A stretch of DNA of 64,000 nt, taken from positions 1 through 64,000 of IMG/VR virus record IMGVR_UViG_3300046314_000558; one strand, written 5' to 3'. Positions 4,327 to 26,012 of the stretch are shown one piece after another. Positions within the stretch are counted from its first letter, which is position 1; each line of letters starts with the position of its first letter. The DNA comes from a virus. The notes under the pieces are model-generated. The model was not told the origin of the DNA, ran no database searches, and saw only the letters and a list, made by a program, of their open reading frames with translations. Both the position numbers and the translations under genes were made by a program.

Positions 4327-4656
4327 ATGTCTGCATCAAAAGCTGTTAACTATACCCCAGAGCAAACCACCAAAATGGTGGCCGATTATGCGGCTGGCGT
4401 GACCGTGGAAACCATCGCCGAATCACTGGGTAAAACTGTTCGTTCAGTTGTGGCCAAATTGTCACGCGAAAAGGTTTACAAAGCTAAAACCTACGTTTCT
4501 AAAACTGGCGCTCCAGTAGTCAAAAAGGATGCGCACGCAGATGCGATTGGCGCGATTTTGAGCATGACTGAATCGGAAATCGAATCGCTTACAAAAGCCA
4601 ATAAAACCGCATTGGAAAAGATTTTTTCAGCATTGGCAAATTCTAAGCCAATGTGA
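4327..4656 (+). CDS. T5 A2-like DNA-binding protein (paralog 2)
   Basis: Core nearly identical to 478..804; own promoter and AAGGA SD. Confidence 0.75.
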   Translation: MSASKAVNYTPEQTTKMVADYAAGVTVETIAESLGKTVRSVVAKLSREKVYKAKTYVSKTGAPVVKKDAHADAIGAILSMTESEIESLTKANKTALEKIFSALANSKPM

Positions 4657-5286: not shown

Positions 5287-5664
5287 GGGTTTTTGTAAAT
5301 ATATTTTTTGTGTTGTTTTTTTTTTTTTTGCACCTGGCACGATTCTTGCGCCGCAGGCCAAACGCGAATCATTCTCATTTGCATTCGCAATTGCGTGTAT
5401 GCGCATATAATTATATACTTATATAAGCCGTTGCTTATATGTGTACTTTAGTACACATGCGCTTTGCGCCAAAGTGGGTAAGTGGAAAAGCTTGCATAAT
5501 GCGCCAAAGTGGAAAAGCTTTTCAAATGCATATTTGTGGAGCTTCTTGCGCCAATATTATATAGTGGAAAAACTTTGCAAGTCAAGTGCAAAATTTTGCA
5601 CTTGCATAGTGCAAACACAAGTGGTATAATTATTTTAATAAGTGCAAAATTTGGAGTACAAAAA

Positions 5665-6327
5665 TTGAGAAAATACACACAAGAAGATAAAGAAGTGGTA
5701 AAGCTGTTGCTGGAGCAAGGCATGCCGCCACTAGAAGTAAGTGCAGAAACAGACATACCTGTAGGCACTATTAATGGTTGGAAGGGCAAATGGGGTATAC
5801 GCCACAAAAACTCTTATAAAGACTTGTACAAAGGTACAGTTGGTGAGGTACAGCAACGACTTATAAAAATAATGCAAGAAGCTCCCGAAGTTTGCTACAA
5901 CTACTTTAACAGTGCCAACAGCGGAGTACCTCCAGCAACAACTTACCGTAAATATTTTGGTACCTGGACTGCTGCACTTGAGGCTGCAGGAGTAGTTGCC
6001 AAAGAGGCGGGAGGTGGGCGAAACGTTCAAAAAGAAGATAAGGTTACACTGCTGTACTTGGTAGAATTTGAGGACTTTTACAAAATTGGTATTACTCAGC
6101 AAACAGTAGATCAAAGACTGGGCGGAAGATATCCCGCCTATAAAATATTGTGTACCAAAGAGTTCAACACGTTGGCGGAAGCTAAGCGTGAAGAAGCTAG
6201 GCTGCTTACCGAAGTTAAGCACAAGCAGTACATACCAACAAATTTTCCAGCTGAGGGTCGAGGTTTCACCGAATGCTTTAAGATGACAAAATCCGAATTT
6301 GAAGAATTTTTTCAAAAAATGTTATAA
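5665..6327 (+). CDS. GIY-YIG-family (Seg/T5orf172-like) homing endonuclease with N-terminal HTH
   Basis: LYLVEF..FYKIGIT motif; PPATTYRKYFGTWTAALEAAG endonuclease-associated repeat; TTG start after GGAG. Confidence 0.7.
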   Translation: MRKYTQEDKEVVKLLLEQGMPPLEVSAETDIPVGTINGWKGKWGIRHKNSYKDLYKGTVGEVQQRLIKIMQEAPEVCYNYFNSANSGVPPATTYRKYFGTWTAALEAAGVVAKEAGGGRNVQKEDKVTLLYLVEFEDFYKIGITQQTVDQRLGGRYPAYKILCTKEFNTLAEAKREEARLLTEVKHKQYIPTNFPAEGRGFTECFKMTKSEFEEFFQKML

Positions 6328-6354
6328 TACATTATTGATTGAAAGGAATACCAC

Positions 6355-6486
6355 ATGACAACAGCCGATTTTTTCGCAGATTTTGCATACCATCAGTACT
6401 CGGAATTTGTGGACCACGAACTTCGCGAAATGTTCCAATGTACCAACCCTCAAGACGAAAATTTTGATCTTGATGTTCCATTCTGA
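6355..6486 (+). CDS. 43-aa acidic peptide ending in an SSB-tail-like DLDVPF
   Basis: Hand-translated; AAAGGA SD; TGTTATAAT extended -10 upstream. Confidence 0.6.
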   Translation: MTTADFFADFAYHQYSEFVDHELREMFQCTNPQDENFDLDVPF

Positions 6487-6535
6487 TTCCAGTATAATAA
6501 TATCTTAAACAGCGCAGAAACCAAACAAAGGACAT

Positions 6536-6847
6536 ATGATGACTAAAGCAACCACTCAAAACTACACCCCTGAGCAAACTACCGAACTCGTCGAAGGCTA
6601 CCAAGCGGGCAAAACCGTGGAACAACTCGCCGAGACCCTGGGCAAAACTGTGCGATCAGTAGTCGCCAAGCTCTCACGCGAAGGCGTGTATCAGGCCAAA
6701 ACCGCAACCCGTGGCGTTGCCCGTGTTAAGAAAGCCGAGCTGGTTGACCAACTTGCCCAAGCATGTGGCGTGGCTCCAGAAGTGTTTGAATCACTGGAAA
6801 AAGCCAACCATGACGTCTTGGAAGCACTGGTGGCCAAGCTGGGCTGA
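6536..6847 (+). CDS. T5 A2-like DNA-binding protein (paralog 3)
   Basis: YTPEQ..GKTVRSVVAKLSREGVY motif. Confidence 0.75.
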   Translation: MMTKATTQNYTPEQTTELVEGYQAGKTVEQLAETLGKTVRSVVAKLSREGVYQAKTATRGVARVKKAELVDQLAQACGVAPEVFESLEKANHDVLEALVAKLG

Positions 6848-7059
6848 TGGTGGCGGTTTGGGGTCAAGAAATTTAATCTTGAAACACACAGCCAAATCCA
6901 GTATAATATATACTTAGACAGTCGGGAAGGGCTTAATGAATGGCAAACCAGCAATGAGTTGCCGCCCGTTCCGTGACAGCAGCCCACCTCACTACTCAGC
7001 AATTAGATTGCAACTATCTGTGTGGCTAGTCTGTTCACAACGACTGTCAATTTTTTTAC

Positions 7060-7088
7060 TTGAAACGCTATGTTAAACGGCGTATAAT
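7060..7088 (+). promoter_or_regulatory. Sigma70 promoter for the non-coding locus (a second promoter lies at 6879-6907)
   Basis: TTGAAA-17-TATAAT. Confidence 0.85.
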
Positions 7089-7408
7089 AGATATATATAT
7101 TGGGTGACAGCGGTTCCAGCGATATATTACTGCTATGGAATACGTCTTAATTGTGGGGAAAACCGAGCCACAGCCCTTAGCAACCATAAGTAAGAGTTCA
7201 AACAGTGCTAGCCTGATCTGCTGGGTACTTGTGTGTAGATAATCCGACTAGTAGGGTTCGGCCGAACCACGAACGCTGCATGCTGCAACTGTACTTAGCA
7301 GTTTGTTGAACTCTTTCTTATGGGTGTTATGAGTCCTGGTCTCTACTAGGATAACAACTTGATGGTGACCGAATTCTCTAGTCACCGCCCAACCTTTTTA
7401 GCTAATCT

Positions 7409-7521
7409 GTTTTTAACCCTCTGATGAGCACATGCAAGTTGTGCGAAACTCTAAGTGTCGGGGCAATTGTGCGAACCACTCCCACGGTTCCGATTGCTGC
7501 AACTTAGGGTCAGGACGAAAA
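7409..7521 (+). ncRNA. Type I hammerhead ribozyme
   Basis: CUGAUGA 7421-7427; stem II GCACA/UGUGC; GAAA 7445-7448; 8-bp stem III; GUC 7509-7511; stem I CCU/AGG plus GUUUUU/GAAAAC. Confidence 0.88.
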
Positions 7522-8013
7522 CCCACCGTGCTTCGGCAATCTAGGTGGAAATGAGTAATTCTAGGGAGCCGTCCCTATATCCCTGGCCGCCTTATCCTGT
7601 ACCGGCGTTAAATGGTCTTAATTTCTAGGATTGTAGCCTATATCTACACGAGCAATGGCAACCCGTAAGGTGGCAACGGTCCTGCACAGACCCTAAACCG
7701 TAGCCGAGCTTGGCCCTCGTGGCTGTAAAGCCGACCCTAAGTCGTTAAAAGCTGTGCGTGGTTTGAACATCCAGCACAAGGTGAGGGAGTGCAGCTTAGT
7801 GCATCCAGGGGTGGAGACCCGAACCAATACTGTTAATGCACGGATACTCCTGGTGTGAACTGGAGCCGAAACGTGCAACCATCCCCCGATCCCAAATACT
7901 CAGAGCTAACCCCTGCTGGTATGATTTGCGCGATTTAGGGTCAGCGGCTGTGGTAGCATAAGTCTGATGTGGATAAAAACTTGTTAGTACCTGGACGCAG
8001 GCATAGTTCAACG

Positions 8014-8049
8014 GCCCCCAAGATTCGCTATCTTGGGGGCTTTTGTTTT
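8014..8049 (+). terminator. Rho-independent terminator
   Basis: GCCCCCAAGA/TCTTGGGGGC followed by a T-run. Confidence 0.9.
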
Positions 8050-8077
8050 GGGCGAACACTTTGTGCTGCCGCGTATG

Positions 8078-8114
8078 GCGCCAAATTATACCAGTGCCTA
8101 ACCTATGCTGTCAA
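8078..8114 (-). promoter_or_regulatory. Leftward sigma70 promoter facing the ncRNA locus
   Basis: TTGACA-18-TATAAT followed by TGGCGC, same form as the cassette promoters. Confidence 0.75.
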
Positions 8115-8237
8115 GTGTGTTTTCTACGCACTCTGACCCTAAACTGCAGCAAGCCACACAAATTTTGGGTGATTTGTATAGGCGTAAAAAAGCCCACTTA
8201 ACCGAAATTAAGTGGGCTTTGGCGCATTTGTGTGCGA

Positions 8238-8549
8238 TTATTGTGATTTAGGGTCAGATAACCGCGATTCAATCAATTTAAGTACAACTTTGTTGACCTT
8301 TTCCAGGGATTCCAGCAATTCCAGGTCGCAGTCGAGCAAGGTGGCAATCCGCTCGATGTGTTCCGATTTTTTCACTGGAATTTCACCGCGCTTGTTAACA
8401 TAGGATTTTTTCTGGTAGACTCCAAGGCTTGAGAGCTTGGCAATTATGCTACGAACCGGCACATCCAGCTGGTCAGCTAGCTGTTCAACTGGCACCCCGG
8501 ACTGGTAGTCGTGTACTAGACGGTCACAAATTTCTTTGGTGTATGTCAT
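8238..8549 (-). CDS. A2-like DNA-binding protein (paralog 4)
   Basis: DYQSG.PVEQLADQLDVPVRSIIAKLSSLGVY motif; AGGAG SD; terminator 8186-8220. Confidence 0.7.
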   Translation of the reverse strand: MTYTKEICDRLVHDYQSGVPVEQLADQLDVPVRSIIAKLSSLGVYQKKSYVNKRGEIPVKKSEHIERIATLLDCDLELLESLEKVNKVVLKLIESRLSDPKSQ

Positions 8550-8559
8550 TGTGCGCTCC

Positions 8560-9351
8560 TTAAACCAACCAAGGTAATTCTAAACCATCGAAACCCGATT
8601 TGTTTGGCTTGGGCAATTTAGGGTCAGGTTGTTTAAAGATTTCTGCACTCACTAGTGGCGGAGGCATTCGGTCCCAGTTGTATGGGTCTAATACCATATA
8701 CTCACTACGCAAGGTTGGGTGTGCTACCCAGATCTGTGCAAGCATTGTTTGTGCTAGTGTAGGAATACTAGCGTAAGGTGTGTCTTTGATGCCTTTTAAG
8801 CACCAGGTTGCTGTAGGCTTCTGTACTTCACCCATTTTAGGGCCGCTTTTAATAGTCAATCCTTGGGTGCGAATTTCAATGACACGATCCGACCCTAAAT
8901 TGTAGAGTTCATCGTCTCGCCACAACATAGCCTCCAGCAAGGCTTCGTCTACTAGTGGGCAAGCTTCTTGTAAGTCCCACTGCATGTAACCGACACCATT
9001 ATACTTCTTTTGTGCACAAAGGATTAGTGGAACCAGTGCTGAATAGTTGGCATATTCCGGACGTGATTGTAGTTTAACTAGACTACCACGTTTAAGTTGA
9101 CAAGCAACACGCCATAGTCCGATTTCCCAAGGCGTCTTGATGTTTTGTTTGGCTGTTAGCATACAGTCGATCTTGTCGTCCCGCCACACAAGCTCCCAAG
9201 TTGCGTAATATGCTACAATTTGGGGTAACATCCACGAACTATAAGCACTTATAAAGTGCTCTTTGGTCAGCTGCTCTAGCTGAGTTTTGTTGAGCTTTTG
9301 GTACTCCTCGAAAGGGTACTCACGAATATCATTGGTTTTTAGTTTTAACAT
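8560..9351 (-). CDS. T5 D2-like protein
   Basis: MLPQI, ALVPLI..KKYNGV.Y..WD, SGPK.G and MVLD.YNWD segments match T5 D2 as recalled. Confidence 0.65.
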   Translation of the reverse strand: MLKLKTNDIREYPFEEYQKLNKTQLEQLTKEHFISAYSSWMLPQIVAYYATWELVWRDDKIDCMLTAKQNIKTPWEIGLWRVACQLKRGSLVKLQSRPEYANYSALVPLILCAQKKYNGVGYMQWDLQEACPLVDEALLEAMLWRDDELYNLGSDRVIEIRTQGLTIKSGPKMGEVQKPTATWCLKGIKDTPYASIPTLAQTMLAQIWVAHPTLRSEYMVLDPYNWDRMPPPLVSAEIFKQPDPKLPKPNKSGFDGLELPWLV

Positions 9352-9744
9352 AGTAGTAGTCTAAAGAAAGATTTTGCTATAAGCCAGCAAAAAGCTGTTG
9401 TGACCCTAAATCTTGGCGATCCGGAGTCGGGTGGTGGAAAGTGGGACAAAAGTTTTGGTTCGTGTATTTTTGCACTTGCTTTAAAACACACAAACACAAT
9501 AATCCCAACTTAGCGGGTAACTTGGCTTGACTAACCGAATCAAGAAAAATATCTGCTGCTCACGCCCCTTCGCTCCGGGACTCCGCGGTGGGACTACAGC
9601 AAGAATTTTATCTAATTCGGTTGTCACCAAGTTTATATCATCTAGTAATATAACTAAATTATAGCACATCGGGCAGCATATTGTCAATGCCTAGATTTTT
9701 AGTGGAGGTGTGCAATGATTTTTATTGTCAGGCTAGCGCTGGGC

Positions 9745-10002
9745 TTAGCCTTTTAAGAGCGCTTGTGCCTTTTCGAGGATATTGCCCTGGCTTAGGGTCA
9801 GGTCAAGCCAGTTCAGTTCTTCAAGAACCACGAGAATTGCAAGAAAATCTTCTAGTTCACCGATTAATTCTTGTTTGTTGTTGGTTGTGCGATCTGGGTG
9901 GTGGTTAGCTTCGCCAAAGCGGTTGATTTTGCTGACGGCTTGAATTACCTCAGCTGCTTCTTCCTGCAGCTTGCTTGTAAGGTATTGTGTTTTGGTTTGC
10001 AT
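9745..10002 (-). CDS. MazG-like nucleotide pyrophosphohydrolase
   Basis: LQEEAAEVIQAVSK ... ELEDF acidic motif. Confidence 0.65.
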   Translation of the reverse strand: MQTKTQYLTSKLQEEAAEVIQAVSKINRFGEANHHPDRTTNNKQELIGELEDFLAILVVLEELNWLDLTLSQGNILEKAQALLKG

Positions 10003-10010
10003 AGATTCCT

Positions 10011-10268
10011 TTAATCAAAAGCGTGTACTACATAGTATCCACCGGAGACCTCGGTTTGAGTGCTGGCAACGTAACAGTAGTTGTGTGGCACCACTTCGCC
10101 GGTTAGTGCAATGTAGACCTCATATTCGGTTTGCTGGTCAGTTTCGGTTTCGAGTACCCAGCCATGCAGTTTCCGGTCCTGATACTTGAGCATTACCAGA
10201 CGTGATGTGCCTGGGCTGGGCAGGGTGTTCATGCCTTCATGTAATCTGTATTTAAGCACTCGCATCAA
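10011..10268 (-). CDS. Hypothetical protein
   Basis: ORF in the tightly packed leftward operon. Confidence 0.6.
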   Translation of the reverse strand: MMRVLKYRLHEGMNTLPSPGTSRLVMLKYQDRKLHGWVLETETDQQTEYEVYIALTGEVVPHNYCYVASTQTEVSGGYYVVHAFD

Positions 10269-10572
10269 CCGTCTCCAGGAACTTGTATAGTGTCATGTCT
10301 TGTGGGTTGTACTCCGTACCGTCGATAATAAAGCCCATGTTTTGTGTACCGTGGTTAGTTTCATACATCCACCACATCAGCCAATCAAATAGTTCTGGGC
10401 CAAGGAGTTGGGCAACCAGTTCTGTGTACGGACCCTCAACCGCATCAGCCAAACCAAAGACCTGATTGTCGGGGTTAATGCACCTGAGTGCTAGGTCAAC
10501 AGCTTGATCTCGTGCACGTTGTGTTTGCAGTGCCATGCAATAGTCGTAGGCAATTTTGTGTGTGGGTTTCAT
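10252..10572 (-). CDS. Hypothetical protein
   Basis: ORF in the leftward operon. Confidence 0.6.
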   Translation of the reverse strand: MKPTHKIAYDYCMALQTQRARDQAVDLALRCINPDNQVFGLADAVEGPYTELVAQLLGPELFDWLMWWMYETNHGTQNMGFIIDGTEYNPQDMTLYKFLETVDASA

Positions 10573-10744
10573 AGGTTGTAAATTAGGTAGTTGGTGAGTT
10601 TGTTCCAGAGGACTCCAAATGCACCGCAGCCAAGCATGAACATTGTGTAGTGTGCAAAGTCGTAACTAAGCCAGTACATTGCTTGGATTGTTAACACCAA
10701 CAGCACTAGGCTAACACAGTGTGCAAGTATTTGTTGAGGTTTGC

Positions 10745-11059
10745 TCATTGGTTGTATTTCTTGTAGTCTAGGGCAGCTTCACGGGTTGAGAATGAGTGTG
10801 CTACCGGAATGTTGTCGTGTAGGTAGTAGTCTGTGAGGGCTTCTACCTCCTGTACCGTGGTTGACTGTACACCGCCAGTGCTCGAAAACACATAAACTTT
10901 GGTGCCGGGTTCGACACCCACACCGTCACAAGTAATGCCTACAACTTGCGCGTCTAGTAATTGTTGTGCAAAGTGAATCAACTCAGCACGTTGTACGGGG
11001 CCGATGTTGGCCCAAGCACGAAGACGTGGAGTGGCATCTAAGATTTGTTCTAGTGTCAC
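10745..11059 (-). CDS. Hypothetical protein
   Basis: GGAG SD; leftward operon. Confidence 0.6.
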   Translation of the reverse strand: MTLEQILDATPRLRAWANIGPVQRAELIHFAQQLLDAQVVGITCDGVGVEPGTKVYVFSSTGGVQSTTVQEVEALTDYYLHDNIPVAHSFSTREAALDYKKYNQ

Positions 11060-11369
11060 GAGTATCGCTCCAAGAGTTGTTGGTGTTGTTGGTCAACTTC
11101 ACGCAAGTGTTGGTCTAGCTTGCGGAGCAACAACTTGCGTTCATCAGGTTTGGCACGGTCAGCCGCATTCCATATCGAAAAGGCTTCGCTGTTCTTGGCA
11201 AGCACATGCTGTTTGTAACGTACAAAGTTGTTCATAGTAGTTTTTTAAGTCTTGGGTAGTGGCATCGCTCCAGTGGTACTCACGGTCACCAAACTGGCCA
11301 CGACAGCTGTGCAGTCGTTGTAACACAAGTTGGCCACGCCAGTTTGTGCGAAATTGGTAGTTGTTCATA

Positions 11370-11651
11370 TTACTCCCAAGTCCGGTGATCTTCAGCAACC
11401 CACTCACGGCCGTCGTATTCAGCAATGTGCCACTTGATGTACTTGGGCACTTGGACAATCTTGAGTTTGGCATACCGGCCATTGGCTTGCTCACCTAGTT
11501 GTTTGACCACTTCGACAAGTGTGGGATCGTTGCGTGCAATCTCCCAGTGATATTCAGGAACGGGCTTACCACTTAGTTCTTGGTAAAGTAGCATTGCGGT
11601 TTCACTGAGGCCAAACCCGCCGTGGCACACATTGATTACAATTTGTTGCAT
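11370..11651 (-). CDS. Conserved phage hypothetical protein
   Basis: VINVCHGGFGLS...EYDGREWVAE pattern typical of small phage proteins. Confidence 0.65.
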   Translation of the reverse strand: MQQIVINVCHGGFGLSETAMLLYQELSGKPVPEYHWEIARNDPTLVEVVKQLGEQANGRYAKLKIVQVPKYIKWHIAEYDGREWVAEDHRTWE

Positions 11652-11652
11652 G

Positions 11653-11856
11653 TTAGTCCTTGGGATGTGGTGTGTTGCATAGTACCAGCATGGCTTGTAG
11701 TTCGCCGTGTGTTAGCCCAACCAGCTTTTGGCCAATACTAATATCCCAGCCTTCGCCGTTGGCCCACTCACACACATCAATAACCTCATCTGCTTTGGCG
11801 TGGTGGCAGTAATCACGGAGATCGGCGTATACGGCGCGTCGATTATAAAATTTCAT
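11653..11856 (-). CDS. Hypothetical protein
   Basis: Coupled ORF. Confidence 0.6.
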   Translation of the reverse strand: MKFYNRRAVYADLRDYCHHAKADEVIDVCEWANGEGWDISIGQKLVGLTHGELQAMLVLCNTPHPKD

Positions 11857-12101
11857 TGTGTTTCCAATTCTTTAGTAGTTAGGTCTTGTGGTTCAAAGTC
11901 TTCAAATGGGTACAGCCATTGTTCGCGGCACCCGTTAAACACCAAGCCCATTCGGCCAGCCAGTTCTGGTTGAATCCAGTAAATACGTTGGTCGTCTACT
12001 TTTTTAACTTCGCCAACTACTACAATGTTACCGTTAAACTCACTACCAAGCCTGTTGCTGGGCACGCCACGAATCATACAAAGTGTTCCAGGTTTGATCA
12101 T
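11853..12101 (-). CDS. Hypothetical protein
   Basis: Start MIKPG after GGAG; leftward promoter upstream. Confidence 0.6.
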   Translation of the reverse strand: MIKPGTLCMIRGVPSNRLGSEFNGNIVVVGEVKKVDDQRIYWIQPELAGRMGLVFNGCREQWLYPFEDFEPQDLTTKELETQ

Positions 12102-12353
12102 AATTTCTCCGTTTAAGTATATATTATACCCGAAACGGCAAAAAGCCACAAGTGCATTTCTGCAATTGTGGCTGGAATTTGTTGCTAAAATGCAACACTC
12201 ATGGTCGGTGGTGTGGAAACGGCCAGTGTGGGTCAATATCTTGTTTGGGCTCTTGCGGCGCTTGATACGGTGGAAATATTTGATCTTGACTGAATATGTA
12301 AGCTATTACAATTCCTATTAGTGCTATAAGGGTAACACACCCTGCAAATATAA

Positions 12354-13040
12354 TTAGTCCCATAGGTTTTCGTAGTACTTTCCAAAAAGTTTAAATCCAT
12401 TTGTAATACGAGCTTGTTCAACGGCCATAGCATCGTAATCGCAAACATAGGTGTCATTGGGGCCAGTAACCATTTGGTACATAGTAGGCTTGCCATGTTC
12501 GTCCCAAGCACAAGGCTGTGTGCTCCAGTTGTGCTCACCACTAGAATACTTTTCTTGCCATGTACCCACGCGCTTGGCCTCAAAAGCAAAGATCATTTCG
12601 CCCAGTACCCAGTCCCAACGCTTGAAGTGGTTTGCATCTGTGTCCCAGGAATTTTCAGTGGGTGGTGCGCTGGTACTCTTGAGTTCTTCAGGCACATCCT
12701 CATCTGCAACAAAAGGCGCACCGTGCTTGCTGGCTTGCATCTGCTGCAACATTGGTGCAATAATATGTGAGAGCGTGGTGTCCATTGACCAAGTGTCATA
12801 CTTGTCAATTTTGACATAAATTTGACGATGGCGCTTAGATTCAATCCAGTGACAAAACTTGTTGAGAAGGGTACTTGATCCGTCCTTGTTCTCACTTAGC
12901 CAACGGCCAAAGTTGTGAACATAATCAGGCTTGGATTTGATGCCATACTCGTCGGGAGTTTCTGGAGCCCACCAACACAGCAGTTCAGCAATCTGGTATG
13001 GGCCAATCCATGTAGTATATTTACCAATTTTAACGCGCAT
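12354..13040 (-). CDS. Conserved phage hypothetical protein
   Basis: 228-aa ORF; DTWSMD and GFKLFGKYY.LWD pattern. Confidence 0.7.
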   Translation of the reverse strand: MRVKIGKYTTWIGPYQIAELLCWWAPETPDEYGIKSKPDYVHNFGRWLSENKDGSSTLLNKFCHWIESKRHRQIYVKIDKYDTWSMDTTLSHIIAPMLQQMQASKHGAPFVADEDVPEELKSTSAPPTENSWDTDANHFKRWDWVLGEMIFAFEAKRVGTWQEKYSSGEHNWSTQPCAWDEHGKPTMYQMVTGPNDTYVCDYDAMAVEQARITNGFKLFGKYYENLWD

Positions 13041-13354
13041 TAAAATAACTCCAGTTGACTAATGTGTGCGTGCAAGTTTTCACGGGCACGATCATAAACT
13101 TCACAAGGTTCCAGCAACTCAGGCTCTAAGCCCTCAACCGCACAAGCGTATTGCAAGAGTGAATAGTTGATTTCTGTCCACAGTGAATTAGCACCAGCTA
13201 CAAAAGCCTGACGCATCCAGTAGTCACGATTGTCCTTGTTTTGTGGATTACCATAGCCGTACACTTGTGCACGATTTGATCCCATTTCAGGATACTGTTC
13301 GTCAAAAAACCAGTGGTTGAATTCACGAGTAGCGTTGTAAGGTGGTTTCTGCAT
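13040..13354 (-). CDS. Hypothetical protein
   Basis: Coupled ORF. Confidence 0.6.
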   Translation of the reverse strand: MQKPPYNATREFNHWFFDEQYPEMGSNRAQVYGYGNPQNKDNRDYWMRQAFVAGANSLWTEINYSLLQYACAVEGLEPELLEPCEVYDRARENLHAHISQLELF

Positions 13355-13560
13355 TAATAGGCTCCTTGGCTGTGATCTACAGCTTTTGTAATATCGTTGT
13401 AAAAGTTCTGCAAGACTACTAGTGCGTCTTTATCATCACCGTGTTTGTAGGCATTGCGAAGTGCTGCGCGCAAGTCGCCTAGCAAGTTGTGCAGGCTGAT
13501 TGCGTTTGCATAGATGTTAACTTCGTCAATGGTATCGCATTGAATTTTAAGTTCTAGCAT
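13354..13560 (-). CDS. Hypothetical protein
   Basis: Coupled ORF. Confidence 0.6.
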   Translation of the reverse strand: MLELKIQCDTIDEVNIYANAISLHNLLGDLRAALRNAYKHGDDKDALVVLQNFYNDITKAVDHSQGAY

Positions 13561-13741
13561 ATTTGTTTAATTGTTTGAGTGTGTTTAGATCAGTTACCGG
13601 CTGGTAGTTAGACTTGGCCATGGGCACAATGCAGTGCTTGAAAGCACGTGCAACCACTTCGCCACAAGGCAAACAGGTGTGTTTGCCAAGTGCCCAACGG
13701 CGTGGGTTTACGTCATCTGAACATTTTACGCAAAAATACAT
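13547..13741 (-). CDS. Small C4 zinc-finger protein (DksA/TraR-like finger)
   Basis: CVKC...RR.ALG..TCLPC; AGGAG SD. Confidence 0.6.
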   Translation of the reverse strand: MYFCVKCSDDVNPRRWALGKHTCLPCGEVVARAFKHCIVPMAKSNYQPVTDLNTLKQLNKYART

Positions 13742-13800
13742 TGTTGAAGTCTCCTGAATATGTGTTTATTATACACTGTTAAGCCGGAGACTTCAAATCT

Positions 13801-14157
13801 TTATTTTCGCATTGCACGGACAAGCTGATCGGTTAGACCACGAATAACTTGTTTGTAGCTATTAACTGCCTGACGCTGACCAGGCAACCACTCTGGTCTA
13901 AGAGTCATTGCCAGCTCCTCATCATAGGTTATTAGCACCGGTTTTGTAGTGCCATCCTTCCAACGTAGTCGTTCACAGTAGATGGTAACAACTTGCGGTT
14001 GTTTGTAGTCAGGTGGCTCTGTGGATACTGTAAGCCGTGGTGGCTGCATAACAGCCACGCGCACAGCACCCACCCGTTCCATTTGCTCTAGTAACCATAC
14101 CGGAAGATCAATTACGGTAATTGGCTCAAAGTCTTCTGTATAGATTACTACGTTCAT
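13801..14157 (-). CDS. Hypothetical protein
   Basis: ORF downstream of thyX. Confidence 0.6.
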   Translation of the reverse strand: MNVVIYTEDFEPITVIDLPVWLLEQMERVGAVRVAVMQPPRLTVSTEPPDYKQPQVVTIYCERLRWKDGTTKPVLITYDEELAMTLRPEWLPGQRQAVNSYKQVIRGLTDQLVRAMRK

Positions 14158-19860: not shown

Positions 19861-19935
19861 CCGGCCTTAGTATAATGGATAATACAGCGGTCTTCTACAC
19901 CGTGAATATGGGTTCGATTCCTGTAGGCCGGACCA
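19861..19935 (+). tRNA. tRNA-Arg(UCU)
   Basis: Cloverleaf; encoded CCA. Confidence 0.9.
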
Positions 19936-20001
19936 AGATAAATATTGACTTGATTAATTGCCTGAATCAGATTATAATATAGTCTGATTTGGAGAATTAA
20001 T

Positions 20002-20346
20002 ATGAGTAATTATACACCAGACGTTTGGGTTGTCCTAGAGTTCGACCACCCAGACTTGGAAACACCCACACGCAAAGTTTTTGCAGGTTGGTACGGCGGA
20101 TTTGCTGGATCAAATTCATGGCAGCTTAATTCAGGAATTGAAGCCGTGCGTCGTAGTGGCGACTGGTTTGAGTTTGTGGGTTATTCAGGCAGTGTTTACC
20201 GCTGTGGCATGAGCAACTATCACATGAGTAGCCTTATGCAAGGCGTACTAGCCCTTTGGCTTAAACAAGCTGATCAGCGTGGTGATACCCAAATCCGTAT
20301 TTTGACACTTGATGAAGTTCTTGAAATGCCTTATAATATAGTCTGA
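20002..20346 (+). CDS. Conserved phage hypothetical protein
   Basis: YTPD.WV, GWYGG..GS.SWQLNSG pattern; own promoter and SD. Confidence 0.7.
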   Translation: MSNYTPDVWVVLEFDHPDLETPTRKVFAGWYGGFAGSNSWQLNSGIEAVRRSGDWFEFVGYSGSVYRCGMSNYHMSSLMQGVLALWLKQADQRGDTQIRILTLDEVLEMPYNIV

Positions 20347-20358
20347 TTTGGAGATAAT

Positions 20359-20559
20359 ATGGCAGGCTATTCACGCGACTTTTTAATTGATGCTTTCATG
20401 AGCCGTTATATTCACTGCACGAAACTTACTATCGAGCAGTTGGTACGGCTAGAACAAATGGCAAATGATCTTTATGATCGTGTAGGTCGCGACGGCTTTC
20501 GTAGTTATGCCAGCTTAGATGCTGATGCAATTCGAGCGTATAAAAATAGTGTTGACTGA
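20359..20559 (+). CDS. Hypothetical protein
   Basis: Promoter plus GGAG SD. Confidence 0.6.
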   Translation: MAGYSRDFLIDAFMSRYIHCTKLTIEQLVRLEQMANDLYDRVGRDGFRSYASLDADAIRAYKNSVD

Positions 20560-20594
20560 TCGCGGTCTTTACTGTATAATTTGTTCTTTAAAGG

Positions 20595-20882
20595 ATGATT
20601 ATGGCAACCAAGTTTACATACACAGAAACCGAAGTGCAGGAGATTGTACAAAAGTATCAAAGTGGTGTGGAACTTGCGGTGCTTGCCACAGACTATGACA
20701 AAAGCGTAGCAAGTGTACGTATGAAGTTGGTAAAGCTGGGTGTATACCAAAAAGCAACCACCACTTCATCAAGTACCAAGTCTGAGACAGCGGCAAAGTC
20801 AGGCGAATTTCCCAAAACTAAGTCAGGCGTACTAGCCTACTATAAAAGCTGCGTTGATGCAGTTGGTTATAGTGAATTTTAA
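20595..20882 (+). CDS. A2/D3-like HTH protein (paralog 5)
   Basis: YTETE..KYQSG..KSVASVRMKLVKLGVY motif. Confidence 0.65.
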   Translation: MIMATKFTYTETEVQEIVQKYQSGVELAVLATDYDKSVASVRMKLVKLGVYQKATTTSSSTKSETAAKSGEFPKTKSGVLAYYKSCVDAVGYSEF

Positions 20883-21104
20883 TGAGTCCCGCTTATGCTT
20901 ACCCAATACATCCCTAGTATCGGGTAGCAAACTTCGAGCGAGGCGGATGCAAGCTCCGTCACTAAAATAAGCGTGTCGCCGTTGTAGAGACAATGCTTGG
21001 ATATTCTAAGATACAACAGGACTGTCGTCCTGGTTCAAGACTGTATGTGGACACTTTAGGGAGTGTCTCCATATATTAACATATTTTATAGTGTGTTAAT
21101 ATAT

Positions 21105-21270
21105 GGATCGGTAGCTTAACATGGTTAAAGCACAAAGCCGGCATACCTCCCCTTCACTTAAACGCTCTCCTCTGCCGCAAGCACGAAGCAAACAGTGGCC
21201 TGAATTCGAATACATGGTTTCGGGAAGGTATAATTTTAGCAAGCAGGTTCGAGTCCTGCCCGATCCACCA
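21105..21270 (+). ncRNA. tRNA-ended stable RNA with about 110-nt insert replacing the anticodon arm
   Basis: Acceptor GGATCGG/CCGATCC-A-CCA; D-arm; T-arm GCAGG-TTCGAGT-CCTGC. Confidence 0.75.
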
Positions 21271-21410
21271 TAATTTAACACATTAGTGCGAACAATGGCT
21301 CCTATTGCAGCCTAAGTAGTTTAGTGTGTTAAATTATGGGTTTAAAATTTTACACTTGTGGTAAAATTGCTTTTTTGATATAATACATACTCTTTGAAAG
21401 AAACACAACC

Positions 21411-21551
21411 ATGCGAGTTTTTACCAAAATAGATGACAAACTAGCTGTGTGGCAGATTGAAGGTAGTGGCTATGCCGATGCCATTAAGCTGGTTCGCGAT
21501 GAACTTGGTGTTGGTCACAAAGCAGTTATCTTGGCCCTTGTAAAATATTGA
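21411..21551 (+). CDS. Hypothetical 46-aa protein
   Basis: Hand-translated ORF downstream of a promoter. Confidence 0.5.
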   Translation: MRVFTKIDDKLAVWQIEGSGYADAIKLVRDELGVGHKAVILALVKY

Positions 21552-21827
21552 CTTGATCTTACAGTTATTTTGCTGTATAATTAACACTTATTCAGAGATA
21601 GTTCCGACACTAACATAGGACTTCCTGATAGACCAGAACAATGCAAAATTGTGTTAGCCAATTAGTGGAACGCTGTTAGCGCAGTGGGTACATAGGGTAA
21701 AGCATGGCACTGGTTGGAACCTCAGATCAGCAGCTCTGAGCTATCAAAAAGCTACTAATTTTGGATCTTGCTTCCACCGACAGATCATGATATCGGGGAG
21801 ATTTCGCACTATTCTAAAAAGTGTTAT

Positions 21828-21906
21828 CCGAGTGTGGGAAAGTCTGGTTTAATCCGCCTGCTTTGGGAGCAGGAAATCGAAGGTTCGAATCCTTCCACTC
21901 GGACCA
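21828..21906 (+). tRNA. tRNA-Pro(UGG)
   Basis: Cloverleaf; CCA. Confidence 0.92.
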
Positions 21907-22105
21907 CCGTGACCATATTGTTGTAACTTTTGCTAGATTCCGGTTCAGTCTCGGAGCTTTATAGATGGAAGTGGTTGTACTTTCTAGATAAGTGCAGCCT
22001 ATAGTCTGAGCTTAGTATATAGCTAGAAGTAATTAATCTTTGTAAAACTAAGCCGATGCCTTAGCGGGCATGGTAGTAAACAGAAGTTACAACAATATGA
22101 ATTAT

Positions 22106-22189
22106 GCGTTGGTGGTGGAATGGTATACACGCTGGTCTTAGAAGCCAGTGCCGCAAGGATTGAGAGTTCGAGTCTCTCTCGACGCACCA
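22106..22189 (+). tRNA. tRNA-Leu(UAG)
   Basis: Cloverleaf; long variable arm; CCA. Confidence 0.92.
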
Positions 22190-22195
22190 CAATTT

Positions 22196-22273
22196 GGGGA
22201 ATGGGTCTGCTTGGGGTGGACACCTGCTTTGCACGCAGGACACAGATCGGTTCGAATCCGATATTCTCCACCA
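22196..22273 (+). tRNA. tRNA-Ala(UGC)
   Basis: Cloverleaf; G3:U70; CCA. Confidence 0.9.
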
Positions 22274-22289
22274 AATTTTAAAAATTATT

Positions 22290-22415
22290 ATGAAAACACG
22301 AAAACCTAGGAATCACGTAGCCTTAGCTTTGATGAAGCGTGGCGGCAGTGGTTCACATAAAAAATCGCACAAGCAATTGCGCGGAAAACTCAACCGAGAA
22401 GGTTGGGACGGCTAA
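22290..22415 (+). CDS. 41-aa very basic peptide
   Basis: MKTRKPRNHVALALMKRGGSGSHKKS...; fills the gap between two tRNAs. Confidence 0.5.
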   Translation: MKTRKPRNHVALALMKRGGSGSHKKSHKQLRGKLNREGWDG

Positions 22416-22416
22416 T

Positions 22417-22491
22417 GGACGTATAACTTAACGGCTAAAGTAGTGGGCTTTTAACCTACAAATCAGAGTTCGATTCTCTGTGCGTCTACCA
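22417..22491 (+). tRNA. tRNA-Lys(UUU)
   Basis: Cloverleaf; CCA. Confidence 0.9.
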
Positions 22492-22574
22492 TATAAAAAC
22501 ACATTCCCCTTGGTTAGGGCTGTCCGGACAGGGTGGTTCAATTCCGCTATAGTGTGTTTTTATATGGTATTTAT

Positions 22575-22666
22575 GGCTCCATAGTTTAATGGTAGAACAG
22601 CGGATTTATATCCCGTATGCAACAGATAATTGGTTAGTCTGGGTTCGAATCCCGGTGGAGCTACCA
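22575..22666 (+). tRNA. tRNA-Ile(UAU) with long variable arm
   Basis: Anticodon loop TT-TAT-AT; about 22-nt variable region; CCA. Confidence 0.75.
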
Positions 22667-22675
22667 AACAAATAT

Positions 22676-22763
22676 GGAATACTGGCCGACCGGTTAAGGC
22701 AACAGATTGCTAATCTGTCATTCAGCAATGGGTGAGTAGGTTCGATTCCTACGTATTCCGCCA
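22676..22763 (+). tRNA. tRNA-Ser(GCU)
   Basis: Cloverleaf; long variable arm; G73; CCA. Confidence 0.92.
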
Positions 22764-22768
22764 AATAT

Positions 22769-22843
22769 GCAGCAGGTAGTGTAATGGAAGCACCCGAGTC
22801 TGTGAAACTCGTAGACTGAGATCGAAACTCAACTGTCTGCCCA
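22769..22843 (+). tRNA. tRNA-His(GUG)
   Basis: Anticodon arm CGAGT-CTGTGAA-ACTCG; slightly irregular acceptor stem. Confidence 0.8.
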
Positions 22844-22844
22844 T

Positions 22845-22920
22845 GCCGATGTAGCTCAGGCGGTAGAGCAGCGGATTGAAAATCCGTGTGTCACTGGTTC
22901 GACCCCAGTCTTCGGCACCA
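22845..22920 (+). tRNA. tRNA-Phe(GAA)
   Basis: Cloverleaf; CCA. Confidence 0.92.
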
Positions 22921-22936
22921 CCTATAAACAAACAAT

Positions 22937-23011
22937 GCTCCCGTCGTCTACTGGCTAGGACGCTGCCCTTTCAAGGCGGAAAAGACGGATCGAAACCGTT
23001 CGGGAGTACCA
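22937..23011 (+). tRNA. tRNA-Glu(UUC)
   Basis: Cloverleaf; CCA. Confidence 0.9.
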
Positions 23012-23016
23012 ACTTC

Positions 23017-23092
23017 ATCCTATTCATCTAGAGGCCAAGGATAGCGGGTTTTCATCCCGTTCACATCGGTTCGAATCCGGTATAGGATGCCA
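23017..23092 (+). tRNA. tRNA-Glu(UUC), second divergent copy
   Basis: Cloverleaf; CCA. Confidence 0.88.
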
Positions 23093-23097
23093 AATTT

Positions 23098-23172
23098 ACT
23101 GGGGTAGCTCAGCGGCAGAGCACTCGCTTGATAAGCGATAGGTCGAGGTCTCGGAATCCTCCCTCAGTACCA
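23098..23172 (+). tRNA. tRNA-Ile(GAU)
   Basis: Cloverleaf with atypical T-loop; CCA. Confidence 0.85.
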
Positions 23173-23272
23173 GATAACTTCTCCCGAAGTTACAGTCTAG
23201 AACACTCGGACTTTAAAGGGTTGTGGGCGTGGGTGTAAGCCCCACATTTTACACAACACACAGGAGACAACA

Positions 23273-23506
23273 ATGTCCAATAAATCACCATTTGAAATTC
23301 GTCTTGAAATTCTCAAGATGACTGCTGAACTTATGCAAGCAGAGTACGAATCTAACGTAGAATTTGCACAAGAAGTCTTTGAAAGTATCAAAGATAAAAC
23401 TGCACTGACCACTGCACAACTAGACAAATTCATGCCAAAGCCTTTTGACTTTGAAGACATGGTAGCTAAAAGCAAGCAGTTCTACGAGTTCGTAAATGCT
23501 AAGTGA
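23273..23506 (+). CDS. Conserved phage hypothetical protein
   Basis: SPFEIRLEILKM...FYEFV; AGGAG SD. Confidence 0.7.
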   Translation: MSNKSPFEIRLEILKMTAELMQAEYESNVEFAQEVFESIKDKTALTTAQLDKFMPKPFDFEDMVAKSKQFYEFVNAK

Positions 23507-23655
23507 ACTAATGAAAAAGCTACAAGATGTGTTCCGACCATACACATTTGAAGACTTTATACAAGATCAGAACCCACAAACATGGTCTGAACTAAAAGAA
23601 TTAGAGCGTACTTGGTATCGTGCCAAAAACGACTTTAACAAAATGTTTTAAATAT

Positions 23656-23724
23656 CGCGGGAAATCAGGTGATAGGCTAGTCTCATAAGCTCGGCCCAGA
23701 GGTTCGAATCCTTACCCGCAACCA
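23656..23724 (+). tRNA. Initiator-like tRNA-Met(CAU) with truncated D-arm
   Basis: CGCGGG...CCCGCA-A-CCA with C1:A72 mismatch; CTCATAA loop; 69 nt. Confidence 0.7.
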
Positions 23725-24129
23725 AATTAGCCTTCCAGCACTTCTGCAGCCGCTTAGTGAACTGGTAAAGATGGCATTGGCTCGCCACCATATTCTTTGA
23801 CAATAGATACGATTGCTTATCTGAGGTAAAACTCGCCGGTGTATCCCGTCTATGTGTGGATATAAGCACCACGCTACATTGTCAACTGCAGGCTAGTAAT
23901 CACTGTGCACAACAACCTGCATCCGTTGAAGCGAAAACTAGATGGGCTGCTCTCACGGGGTTAAAGTTATCCTGACACAAAAATAACTATGTATCTGTTT
24001 ACTTAAGGCTAAAGACTATGCCCCCTTGTGGAACTGAAACAGCGTCAATGTCTTCAGTGACAACGAAATGTCACGCCGGAGAATGTAACCGGCAACTATT
24101 TATTCGGCCAGAGAAGTTCTCTGGCTTTT

Positions 24130-24204
24130 GGTTTTGTAGCACAGCGGTAGTGCACGGTCTTCATACGGCGTTGGTCGTGAGTTCAAATCCCACCAAAACC
24201 ACCA
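24130..24204 (+). tRNA. tRNA-Met/Ile2(CAU)
   Basis: Cloverleaf with irregular anticodon stem; CCA. Confidence 0.78.
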
Positions 24205-24219
24205 AACAAGGATTATAAA

Positions 24220-24402
24220 ATGAGCGATGGCGGAAAAGGCTCAAAGCGCAGACCTCAAGGCATACCAGATGATGTACTTGCAGAAGCCTGGGCACGTATC
24301 TTTGCTAAAAATCCAGATAACACTGGTTTAAGCAAATCAGAATATCCCGAATTGTTAAGCCACGAAAGTGGTTTAACAGAATCCCACGACCCTAGCCAGT
24401 AG
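24220..24402 (+). CDS. Small hypothetical protein
   Basis: MSDGGKGSKRRP...WARIF pattern; AGGA SD. Confidence 0.6.
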   Translation: MSDGGKGSKRRPQGIPDDVLAEAWARIFAKNPDNTGLSKSEYPELLSHESGLTESHDPSQ

Positions 24403-24435
24403 TCAGTCTGGTGTTAGAAAAGTGGGGCAACACAT

Positions 24436-24510
24436 ATGTCCCTAGTGTAATTGGCAGCACGTTAGTCTCCAAAACTATTAGTCACGGTTCGAGTCCGTGG
24501 GGGCGTGCCA
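24436..24510 (+). tRNA. tRNA-Trp(CCA)
   Basis: Cloverleaf; CCA. Confidence 0.88.
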
Positions 24511-24561
24511 AATTTTTGATTTGAATATATTTTCCCAATCGGGTATAATTATTCTTTAAAC

Positions 24562-24646
24562 GGAGATTCCGCCGCAATGGTGTGGCAGGGGATTGTAAAT
24601 CCTCCGACTTAGGTCATGACAGGTTCGATCCCTGTAGTCTCCACCA
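24562..24646 (+). tRNA. tRNA-Tyr(GUA)
   Basis: Cloverleaf; long variable arm; CCA. Confidence 0.92.
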
Positions 24647-24717
24647 ATTTTTGCAAACGGCTTTGACGCCTGGCGATAGCTGTTCAGGGGAAGTCTCAGT
24701 TGTTTGCTTTATATTAC

Positions 24718-24802
24718 GCCCCTATGGTGAAATCCTGGTAAACACAAGGCACTTAAAATGCCTCGCTTCGGCTTCCCGGTTCGAGTCCGGGTGGGGGTAC
24801 CA
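24718..24802 (+). tRNA. tRNA-Leu(UAA)
   Basis: Cloverleaf; CCA. Confidence 0.92.
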
Positions 24803-24811
24803 AAAACAAAT

Positions 24812-24891
24812 GGCTAATGGGACTGCTTGGTGTGGTCGCCGCACTGTCACTGCGGATATTCAGGTCGGTTCGATTCCGATATTGGTCGCCA
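24812..24891 (+). tRNA. tRNA-Asp(GUC)
   Basis: Cloverleaf; CCA. Confidence 0.9.
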
Positions 24892-24966
24892 TAAAAATAG
24901 GTGAAAAGGGTAGCTCCCCCGATACTGCCAACTCAGTATCTAGCCTAATATCTTAGTTGGAAGATT

Positions 24967-25596
24967 ATGCAGACATTAAAAGAAGCAATGCTGGAAGCGT
25001 TCCAGTATTTAGAAAATACTTATAACCCTAAATGGACTTCTGGTAAAGGTTCAAAAGAAAAACTTATAGACGCTTTCTCACAAAACGAGTTACCAAAGCA
25101 CAAATTTTTAGGGTTTGCTGGCTCAGACGGATTACGTCATGCTTTTGGTAGGGCTTTAACAGGCCATAATAAACCCAAAAGCACTAAGTGGGAAATATGG
25201 TTACTTAGAAACATAAACAAGTTTCAGTGCACTAAGTGCAACTTAGTGCATGCTTATAATCATAAATATGATACTAATGTTAATCTATGTAAAGACTGTA
25301 ACAGTATAAAGTGCTCCGATACTAGAGACTCTAAAAGACAATATGTATATGATGTACTGAGTTCAAGCTCTGGTTGTGTAGACTGTGGCGAAAAAGACCC
25401 AATTGTATTAGAATTTGACCATAGAGATCCAAGTACAAAATCCTCTAACATAGGCGATAGTTACGGTAAGTCAATAGAGTACCTAAAAGAAGAAATATTA
25501 AAATGTGATATAGTTTGTGCTAACTGTCACAGAAAACGAACAGCAAAAATGTTTAACTACTATAAGTACGTAAAACAGCTATCAAACCTGCCTTAG
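24967..25596 (+). CDS. HNH homing endonuclease
   Basis: CVDCGEKDPIVLEFDHRD...CANCHRKRT; AT-rich insert within the tRNA cluster. Confidence 0.85.
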   Translation: MQTLKEAMLEAFQYLENTYNPKWTSGKGSKEKLIDAFSQNELPKHKFLGFAGSDGLRHAFGRALTGHNKPKSTKWEIWLLRNINKFQCTKCNLVHAYNHKYDTNVNLCKDCNSIKCSDTRDSKRQYVYDVLSSSSGCVDCGEKDPIVLEFDHRDPSTKSSNIGDSYGKSIEYLKEEILKCDIVCANCHRKRTAKMFNYYKYVKQLSNLP

Positions 25597-25774
25597 GTCC
25601 GTGTCGTTCCGGTTAGAGCGTCCGTGACCCATCCGTTGGATACGATAAGTCCAAGCTGGAACCGTAACCAGCATATTTAATACTAGCGAGAATGCGCTAT
25701 AGTGTGTAGGTGGTATCCTTCTCTGCCACTGAAGCTCACTCGGGGATTGCGCACCGGGCGCTAGTATTAAATAT

Positions 25775-25853
25775 TCCGTAGAATCCGAGCTAGGTGCACG
25801 GACTTGACTGTTAATCAATGACTAGACTGGTTCGAATCCAGTATACGGAGCCA
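25775..25853 (+). tRNA. tRNA-Asn(GUU)
   Basis: Cloverleaf; CCA. Confidence 0.88.
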
Positions 25854-25859
25854 CATTGT

Positions 25860-25933
25860 TGGGGGTTAGTGAAATGGTATCACACGGGATTTTGATTCCC
25901 TTGTCACAGGTTCGATTCCTGTACCCTCTGCCA
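25860..25933 (+). tRNA. tRNA-Gln(UUG)
   Basis: Cloverleaf; CCA. Confidence 0.9.
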
Positions 25934-25935
25934 AC

Positions 25936-26012
25936 GGGTCTATAGCACAACTGGATAATGCACCGGTTTACGAAGCCGTGAAGTGAGAGTTCAAATCTTT
26001 CTAGACCCACCA
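25936..26012 (+). tRNA. tRNA-Arg(ACG)
   Basis: Cloverleaf; CCA. Confidence 0.9.

Follow-up and report, generated by a model that had tools for sequence, protein, structure and literature searches.

What is the purpose of a stretch of almost one kilobase that a phage keeps between a promoter and a terminator, beside genes of the A2 family, when it encodes no credible protein? The question is raised by positions 7095-8049 of the DNA analyzed here, the first 64,000 nucleotides (nt; hereafter the window) of a 99.9-kb virus record in IMG/VR (IMGVR_UViG_3300046314_000558) that derives from freshwater metagenomes. The DNA polymerase of this source genome is 48% identical to polymerases of the Demerecviridae, such as that of Vibrio phage pVp-1, and, judged by its sequence, the uncultured freshwater phage is a distant T5-like (Demerecviridae-like) virus. 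A first-pass annotation of the window had proposed that the region is transcribed into a large RNA containing a complete hammerhead ribozyme, and that self-cleavage would release a structured 3′ RNA. On balance, the evidence favors the view that a gene running from promoter to terminator encodes here a non-coding RNA precursor that is modular, highly structured and self-processing. The observations that carry this view are the transcription signals, the folds and their covariation, the existence of a large RNA family with conserved synteny, and the separate abundance of the 3′ part of the RNA in one RNA library of relatives.

A covarying hammerhead ribozyme

The ribozyme lies on the plus strand at 7415-7515 and is of type I. 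Its core consists of CUGAUGA (7421-7427), GAAA (7445-7448) and GUC (7509-7511), which are joined by stem I (7418-7420/7512-7514, CCU/AGG), stem II (7428-7432/7440-7444) and stem III (7448-7456/7502-7510) in a three-helix junction in which stem I is the open one and stems II and III are closed. Cleavage is predicted to occur between C7511 and A7512. All of these elements had been placed correctly in the first-pass annotation, and the insert of about 45 nt that it described in stem III is indeed present and resolves into two covarying helices, 7464-7468/7492-7496 and 7473-7477/7486-7490. A descriptor that demands the core, a stem II of at least 4 bp closed by G-C, GAAA, a stem III of at least 5 bp, UH and a stem I of at least 3 bp matches only once on both strands of the 64-kb window, and it finds nothing in 200 shuffles.

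Covariation among homologs, which the annotation had named as a check on its proposal, was found. When RNAalifold was applied to a plain MAFFT alignment of 17 sequences, it recovered the hammerhead unaided, including all three stems and the two inner helices of stem III, with compensatory changes in 19 of the 27 hammerhead pairs. A covariance model built from the 17-sequence alignment has a single match in the 99.9-kb genome, at this site and with 129 bits; elsewhere it matches 22 times in viral loci and in 63 of 80 metagenome loci. The cells assigned to hammerhead pairs are paired in 96.4% of cases among 22 sequences and in 93.4% among 58 distinct sequences, and all five helices covary. The corresponding covariation scores are 0.53 and 0.48; sliding the partners by 1-3 columns gives at most 0.09, and none of 500 shuffles reaches the observed values.

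The individual nucleotides of the core tell the same story. C3 to A9 is invariant in 59 aligned homologs except at N7 (U, C or A), and GAAA (G12 A13 A14 plus A15.1) is kept in 63 of 63. The pair A7448-U7510 corresponds to A15.1-U16.1; U16.1 is found in 59 of 59 sequences, and position 17 (C7511 here) is C in 58 and A in one. The G10.1-C11.1 pair (G7428-C7444) is GC without exception (22/22 and 57/57 sequences). Stem I, which is 3-6 bp long in the family, covaries as well, with UA replaced by AU in 8 sequences and CG by UA in 2. Moreover, G-U pairs outnumber A-C pairs by 93 to 33 in the hammerhead helices, and selection therefore acts on the plus-strand RNA. By all of these sequence and covariation measures the hammerhead is genuine, and self-cleavage is predicted.

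A pseudoknot between loop II (CAAGU) and AACUUG at 7356-7361 was considered and dropped; the two strands are complementary here and show no joint change in relatives. Also set aside as a family feature was an extension of stem I at 7409-7414/7517-7522, which relatives do not conserve. Four relatives (L093, L087, L010 and L100) carry an insert of about 85 nt in stem II of the hammerhead that starts with GACCCUAAACUG and ends with CAGUUUUAAAU, and three of the four have an extra U between A9 and G10.1.

A transcription unit without protein-coding content

A consensus scan places a sigma-70 promoter (TTGAAA-17-TATAAT) on the plus strand at 7060-7088, with transcription expected to start near 7095. 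Its -10 box and the AGATATATA that follows are kept in relatives. Upstream of the conserved 5′ core of the RNA, TAnAAT is present in 81 of 107 contexts, 78 of which also have a -35-like hexamer. The opposite end of the unit is formed by a conserved 3′ block and an intrinsic terminator (7975-8050, plus strand), in which a 12-bp GC-rich stem at 8013-8041 precedes a U-run; this stem, too, covaries among relatives. The promoter and terminator that were said to bracket the region are thus both confirmed at the site and both conserved. The claim that no credible open reading frame (ORF) lies between them also holds, since the longest one in 7095-8049 spans 87 amino acids (aa) on the minus strand, a Pfam search of the ORFs in this interval returned no match, and homologs differ by many indels across the RNA gene. 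A transcription unit for a non-coding RNA is therefore supported.

Facing this unit on the minus strand is a perfect TTGACA-18-TATAAT promoter with an extended -10 box (8085-8114), which fires leftwards into the terminator of the RNA gene. A comparable leftward promoter is located no more than 160 nt from the terminator in 55 of 65 relatives. It has no ORF to express and would give convergent transcription or a short antisense RNA. Sub-threshold Rfam matches to CyaR and RefA9 on the minus strand at 8186-8220 are explained by a hairpin, the intrinsic terminator of the leftward operon whose last gene is of A2 type.

A family of related RNAs

About 30 viral loci were gathered with one neighboring protein and two short patterns, and exact matches to the 5′-core pattern were collected from 17 viral and 106 metagenome stretches. 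The resulting family comprises at least 107 distinct 5′ contexts, viral and metagenomic together. Complete elements number 72 and measure 431-1605 nt (median 901); the hammerhead core is present in 62 of them. A scan of genome contigs with the 5′-core pattern produced a sole match in a bacterial genome, a 2.9-kb contig (L143) binned to a metagenome-assembled genome of Candidatus Saccharibacteria. This contig is most likely a mis-binned phage fragment and offers no usable clue to the host.

BLAST searches with the region and with one neighboring protein found no match in 50,697 cultured-phage records. The hammerhead covariance model likewise found no match in T5, pVp-1 or AAS21, which in this respect differ from the present phage, and we trust this negative because the same model does match the source genome. 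Rfam 15, searched with region 6900-8250 at gathering thresholds and at E ≤ 10, gave only chance-level matches to unrelated small families, and the covariance models of GOLLD, ROOL, OLE and other large RNAs in Rfam gave no match at E ≤ 10. The first-pass annotation could not match the RNA by eye to group I/II introns, RNase P, SRP or tmRNA, and Rfam likewise contains no family that it matches.

Modules on the 5′ side and the tRNA slot

Although attention had been drawn mainly to the 3′ part of the RNA, the 5′ half turned out to be at least as conserved. Its hallmark is a core at 7102-7176 (plus strand) that is invariant in more than 100 contexts and that is made up of the blocks 7102-7113, 7143-7156 and 7163-7176 around a variable hairpin (7114-7140). 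All 19 aligned relatives have the same sequence in the three blocks, and the hairpin varies in sequence while its self-complementarity is kept. We propose that the core can be drawn as a three-way junction (7102-7105/7173-7176, 7106-7108/7144-7146 and 7152-7156/7168-7172), possibly with a pseudoknot between 7111-7113 and 7163-7165. The sole compensatory change for these modeled helices is A7107U with U7145A in one relative (L031), the blocks being otherwise invariant.

The next module is an optional insert domain at 7184-7323 (plus strand). The long helix originally drawn at 7183-7204/7304-7325 is borne out as the 18-bp helix 7184-7201/7306-7323 that closes this domain, and RNAalifold detects compensatory changes in 16 of the domain's 31 pairs across 9 relatives. 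The domain is absent from relatives L018, L023, L025, L026, L028 and L031. It is followed by a two-hairpin module at 7323-7387 on the same strand, composed of hairpins Ta (7323-7359) and Tb (7363-7369/7381-7387), with compensatory changes in 11 of 20 pairs (16 relatives). Neither ARAGORN nor the Rfam model RF00005 calls a tRNA in 7323-7387; the genuine tRNAs that stand next to this module in relatives are recognized by both ARAGORN and Rfam. Those tRNAs occupy what is here a 27-nt spacer (7388-7414, plus strand), as determined by ARAGORN and by alignment. A complete tRNA fills the slot in 21 of 84 distinct relatives, 19 times Glu-UUC and twice Tyr-GUA, and the gap between the end of its encoded CCA and the ribozyme core is 5-7 nt.

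The tRNA slot brings up the possibility that the element is an expression cassette for tRNA or other cargo, in which the ribozyme cuts downstream of the tRNA for its independent maturation; the tRNA would have been lost in this phage and the rest would be a leftover scaffold. The regular position of tRNA-Glu and tRNA-Tyr directly ahead of the core in a quarter of the contexts is in line with this idea, as is a marine relative with yet another tRNA end at the same place. Nevertheless, we find the cassette improbable: three-quarters of the family have no tRNA and yet keep the ribozyme, the most conserved parts of the RNA (the 5′ core and the 3′ block) are unrelated to tRNA, and the cut, about 100 nt downstream of where the tRNA ends, makes no tRNA terminus.

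Modules on the 3′ side and their complementary strands

Shortly after the ribozyme, the sequence forms a hairpin with a UUCG loop (7522-7548, plus strand), in place of which relatives have a larger variable insert. A double-pseudoknot module at 7562-7616 (plus strand) comes next, as defined by pair counts in 25 relatives. It combines the helices H1 (7562-7567/7572-7577) and H2 (7588-7591/7604-7607) with the pseudoknots PK-A (7568-7571/7584-7587) and PK-B (7601-7603/7614-7616). Its covariation score in these relatives is 0.304, versus at most 0.098 for slid partners, and 0 of 500 shuffles attain it. The corresponding model, R2, matches the genome once, with no second copy, and is found only within this RNA family. 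A kissing contact between GGAUAA (7349-7354) and the UUAUCC loop at 7592-7597 was rejected; it is complementary here and shows no joint change in relatives.

Farther downstream, a motif scan identifies two GACCCUAA modules at 7689-7696 and 7733-7740 (region 7683-7757, plus strand), possibly enclosed by a helix 7683-7688/7752-7757. The copy number of GACCCUAA ranges from 0 to 4 among relatives, most of which also have the complementary UUUAGGGUC strand that is located here at 7931-7942 on the plus strand. This distal strand can pair over 12 bp with 7733-7744, and its part 7934-7942 over 9 bp with 7689-7697. The latter helix had been taken to close a domain of about 250 nt. Its complementarity stands and is conserved, both strands being invariant motifs, but its covariation is not significant (a permutation test on flank complementarity gave an observed value of 3.78 and a shuffled one of 3.65, and 483 of 2000 shuffles equaled or exceeded the former), and 7733-7744 is at least as good a partner for the distal strand. 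Rather than a closed domain, this part of the RNA is a chain of separable modules that are present or absent among relatives.

Two further alternatives arise from these complementary strands. In the first, the hammerhead would be a regulated switch: GACCCUAAG strands (7733-7742) would pair with 7502-7511 and hold the ribozyme off until released, for example by a protein or by the order of folding, and would thereby set the moment at which the 3′ RNA is released or decays. The strand 7733-7742 is fully complementary to 7502-7511 over 10 nt, UUAGGGUC is common to the cleavage-site strand and the distal strand (7934-7942) in most relatives, and some relatives have a GACCCUAAACUG module within stem II of the ribozyme itself. 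However, changes in stem III of relatives L002 and L003 are unmatched by the downstream GACCCUAAG copies, so there is no covariation between the two, and stem III, being a local hairpin, would be the first to form as the RNA is transcribed. We therefore doubt that such a switch operates.

The second starts from the fact that the distal site repeats the 3′ strand of stem III together with GUC. One core might then cut at two sites, GUC 7511 and the distal UUUAGGGUC at 7942, and excise an RNA of about 430 nt whose 5′-OH and cyclic phosphate would allow circularization by a host RtcB-type ligase. AGG, the 3′ strand of stem I, does follow the distal site in about 60% of relatives. In the window, though, it is AGC and not AGG that follows, and no covariation links the distal site to stem III of the ribozyme in the same RNA. 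RNA contigs of relatives also continue past this site, as far as about 8003, with no back-joint seen. Excision of this kind strikes us as very improbable indeed.

RNA from relatives

The freshwater metatranscriptome X24 contains contigs of relatives that, at a depth of 172-398, cover 7523-8003 only. One of them ends 12 nt 3′ of the predicted cut, and a second, in its own sequence, starts about 16 nt beyond the cut on the 3′ side; two contigs run out at 8001-8003, immediately short of the terminator hairpin. No X24 contig lies on the invariant 5′ core, which would match the DNA of any relative, or on the flanks. A stable 3′ product of about 535 nt would account for this confinement to the 3′ side of the cut, and DNA contamination would not. 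At the level of contigs, in relatives and in one study, these data thus suggest that the 3′ piece accumulates alone. Three further runs, X20, X22 (both only guessed to be RNA) and X23, were left unused as evidence of transcription; they cover the flanks or span the cut and may contain DNA.

The A2 locus and the comparison with T5

The RNA gene is embedded between two genes of 103 aa each. The upstream one (6536-6847, plus strand) belongs to the Phage_T5_A2 family according to the family of its close homologs and to Atlas, and the downstream one (8238-8549, minus strand) is 45% identical to this paralog. Homologs with 77-93% identity to the flanking proteins carry the precomputed assignment PF26822 (Phage_T5_A2), and their Atlas clusters have the same name. 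Direct searches with the two proteins found no PF26822 match in the Pfam copy searched, and BLASTP to T5 A2 gave a weak, collinear alignment (E = 0.003). The arrangement is a property of the family: of 107 loci, 105 have an A2-family gene immediately upstream, and of 61 loci, 59 have one immediately downstream on the opposite strand; a 263-aa neighbor is next in 42 of 44. Including both flanking genes, four clear Phage_T5_A2 paralogs of about 100 aa are present in the first 8.6 kb (the others at 487-774 and 4333-4632, plus strand). Weaker A2-family matches occur at 20595-20786 and 35805-36041, and a search of the 99.9-kb record for a homolog of T5 A1 detected none.

In T5, A2 is a pre-early DNA-binding protein that is required, along with A1, for the second step of DNA transfer, and the injection-stop region (untranslated repeat region 3) has been read as a DNA site with DnaA boxes (Davison 2020, bioRxiv 10.1101/866236). 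Like the present locus, that region is non-coding over about 1-1.7 kb, rich in inverted repeats, situated at a switch from plus-strand to minus-strand genes and part of the A2-encoding portion of the genome. Unlike it, T5 has no motif or DnaA-box arrangement in common with the region studied here (T5 6000-14000 was compared), the flanking genes outside the A2 family are not homologous, and the T5 flank protein is unrelated to the 263-aa neighbor. The analogy with T5 extends no further than position and the A2 family. Within those bounds, the proposed placement of the RNA at the boundary between pre-early and early genes gains support from the A2-family flanks, the four A2 paralogs at the left end and the strand switch that resembles that of the T5 injection-stop region.

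Alternatively, selection could act primarily on DNA. The region would then work in cis for the A2 locus, for example as an origin, an array of protein-binding sites or a site resembling an injection stop, and GACCCTAA boxes and inverted repeats would be what is selected, with the RNA as a by-product. The 8-mer GACCCTAA occurs 17 times in the window versus 1.4 expected, a number reached in 0 of 100 shuffles. Ten of the copies are concentrated in 7504-9799, on both strands, within and outside the RNA gene and around the A2-type genes, and one precedes the -35 box of the leftward promoter by about 20 nt, a placement conserved in relatives. The position also matches the untranslated, repeat-rich region of T5, with genes for putative DNA-binding proteins of the A2 family on both sides. 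We nevertheless regard a DNA element as an unlikely explanation of the region. The catalytic core is sensible only as plus-strand RNA, the helices have a threefold excess of G-U over A-C pairs, the pseudoknots covary, promoter and terminator are conserved, and the 3′ part is found at high depth in an RNA library without neighboring DNA; to this is added the lack of shared T5 motifs and DnaA-box arrangement noted above. None of the four alternatives, whether DNA boxes, switch, tRNA cassette or two-site circularization, is backed by covariation. The seven GACCCTAA copies elsewhere in the window reach as far as 57229. Most of all the copies lie within ORFs, in the sense orientation and in frame 0 or 2.

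Other features of the window include, at 5509-6327, a gene whose 272-aa product contains both an HNH-associated repeat and a nuclease domain of the MUG113/T5orf172-like type. Homologs are present in only 2 of 134 related loci, and the gene is therefore probably a mobile homing-endonuclease insertion. Rfam also finds 23 tRNA matches at 19861-31002 and a two-piece, circularly permuted tmRNA at 27018-27374 (97.8 bits to RF04321).

Discussion

According to the reading that we favor, that of a self-processing RNA precursor, host RNA polymerase would start near 7095 and stop at the terminator at 8013-8050. During transcription or soon afterwards, the type I hammerhead would fold and cut the precursor between C7511 and A7512. 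The 5′ piece, of about 417 nt, would comprise the invariant core, the insert, the two hairpins and the ribozyme as a 3′ tail, with a 2′,3′-cyclic phosphate at its end. The 3′ piece, of about 535 nt, would start with a 5′-OH, open with the double pseudoknot, contain the GACCCUAA modules and persist separately. The ribozyme would then serve as a built-in, host-independent processing module that uncouples neighboring RNA modules, among them a cargo tRNA in one-quarter of the relatives. The RNA gene belongs to the locus of A2, the DNA-transfer protein of the phage, a membership that makes expression within the first minutes of infection probable.

Several observations weigh against this reading. 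Stem I consists here of only 3 Watson-Crick pairs plus a distal 6-bp extension that is specific to the window. The hammerhead models of Rfam do not match the site even at E ≤ 10, and the best Rfam score in a relative, 31.9 bits, is below the gathering threshold of RF00008 (48.5), which is likely because of the insert of about 45 nt in stem III and the short stem I. Ten of the 72 complete family members have no ribozyme, so cleavage must be accessory, rather than essential, to the function of the family. Similarly, the double-pseudoknot module was recovered in only 15 of 89 further loci, and its limitation to a subset of relatives means that it, too, is not essential to that function. The RNA evidence comes from assembled contigs of relatives in public runs and not from this phage. 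Finally, in the marine RNA library X23 one contig spans the cut site of the ribozyme, with the 3′ end of another tRNA directly in front of the ribozyme; this contig may represent uncut precursor or contaminating DNA, as the library also covers the flanks.

The ribozyme itself belongs to a known class, and the novelty lies in the composite RNA family. Hammerheads in intergenic regions of phages (PaP3, Bcep176) and polycistronic transcripts with several ribozymes have been described (Perreault et al. 2011, PMC3088659). The type I hammerheads of bacteria and phages (Rfam clan CL00010, RF00163) share the catalytic core, the open stem I, the G10.1-C11.1 pair and the GUC triplet with the one studied here. 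They differ in that the present ribozyme has about 45 nt of extra stem III helices and a stem I of 3 pairs, so that the Rfam models miss it, and lies inside a non-coding RNA of about 950 nt, in relatives with a tRNA 5-7 nt upstream, instead of between protein genes. The closest parallels in scale are GOLLD and ROOL, large ornate RNAs of phages and prophages that likewise extend over several hundred nt with many covarying helices and pseudoknots, are carried by tRNA-rich phages and have their own promoter and terminator. However, they match the present RNA neither in sequence nor in structure (Rfam, E ≤ 10), and the self-cleaving ribozyme, the modularity by presence and absence and the synteny with A2 genes set it apart. 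For the composite of a large modular RNA, a hammerhead, a tRNA slot and A2 synteny, we found no described counterpart in Rfam or in the literature searched.

What the RNA might do for the phage can be sketched only speculatively. One conjecture, to which we attach a low probability, is that it is a very early effector of the A2 module: the GACCCUAAG repeats of the hammerhead-released 3′ product would titrate or guide a factor, possibly the flanking A2 proteins, that also recognizes at least a dozen genomic GACCCTAA sites, and would do so between the first and second steps of DNA entry.

Whatever the roles of the two predicted products may be, a structured RNA at this locus has implications for our understanding of both phage ribozymes and phage DNA entry. 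Hammerheads have been known in phages since 2011 and their purposes have stayed mostly obscure. The family described here has one at a fixed place, where it separates two strongly conserved RNA halves beside a slot that can hold a tRNA, and it thereby allows a direct test of whether a ribozyme can serve as an RNA-processing module that does not depend on the host. The size and diversity of the family, with more than 100 contexts and many compensatory changes, also suit it to structure determination. A2 is one of the two proteins that T5 needs to take up the remainder of its DNA, by a mechanism that has been open for more than 50 years, and a conserved RNA between the A2 genes of distant T5 relatives is thus a new candidate player in DNA transfer.

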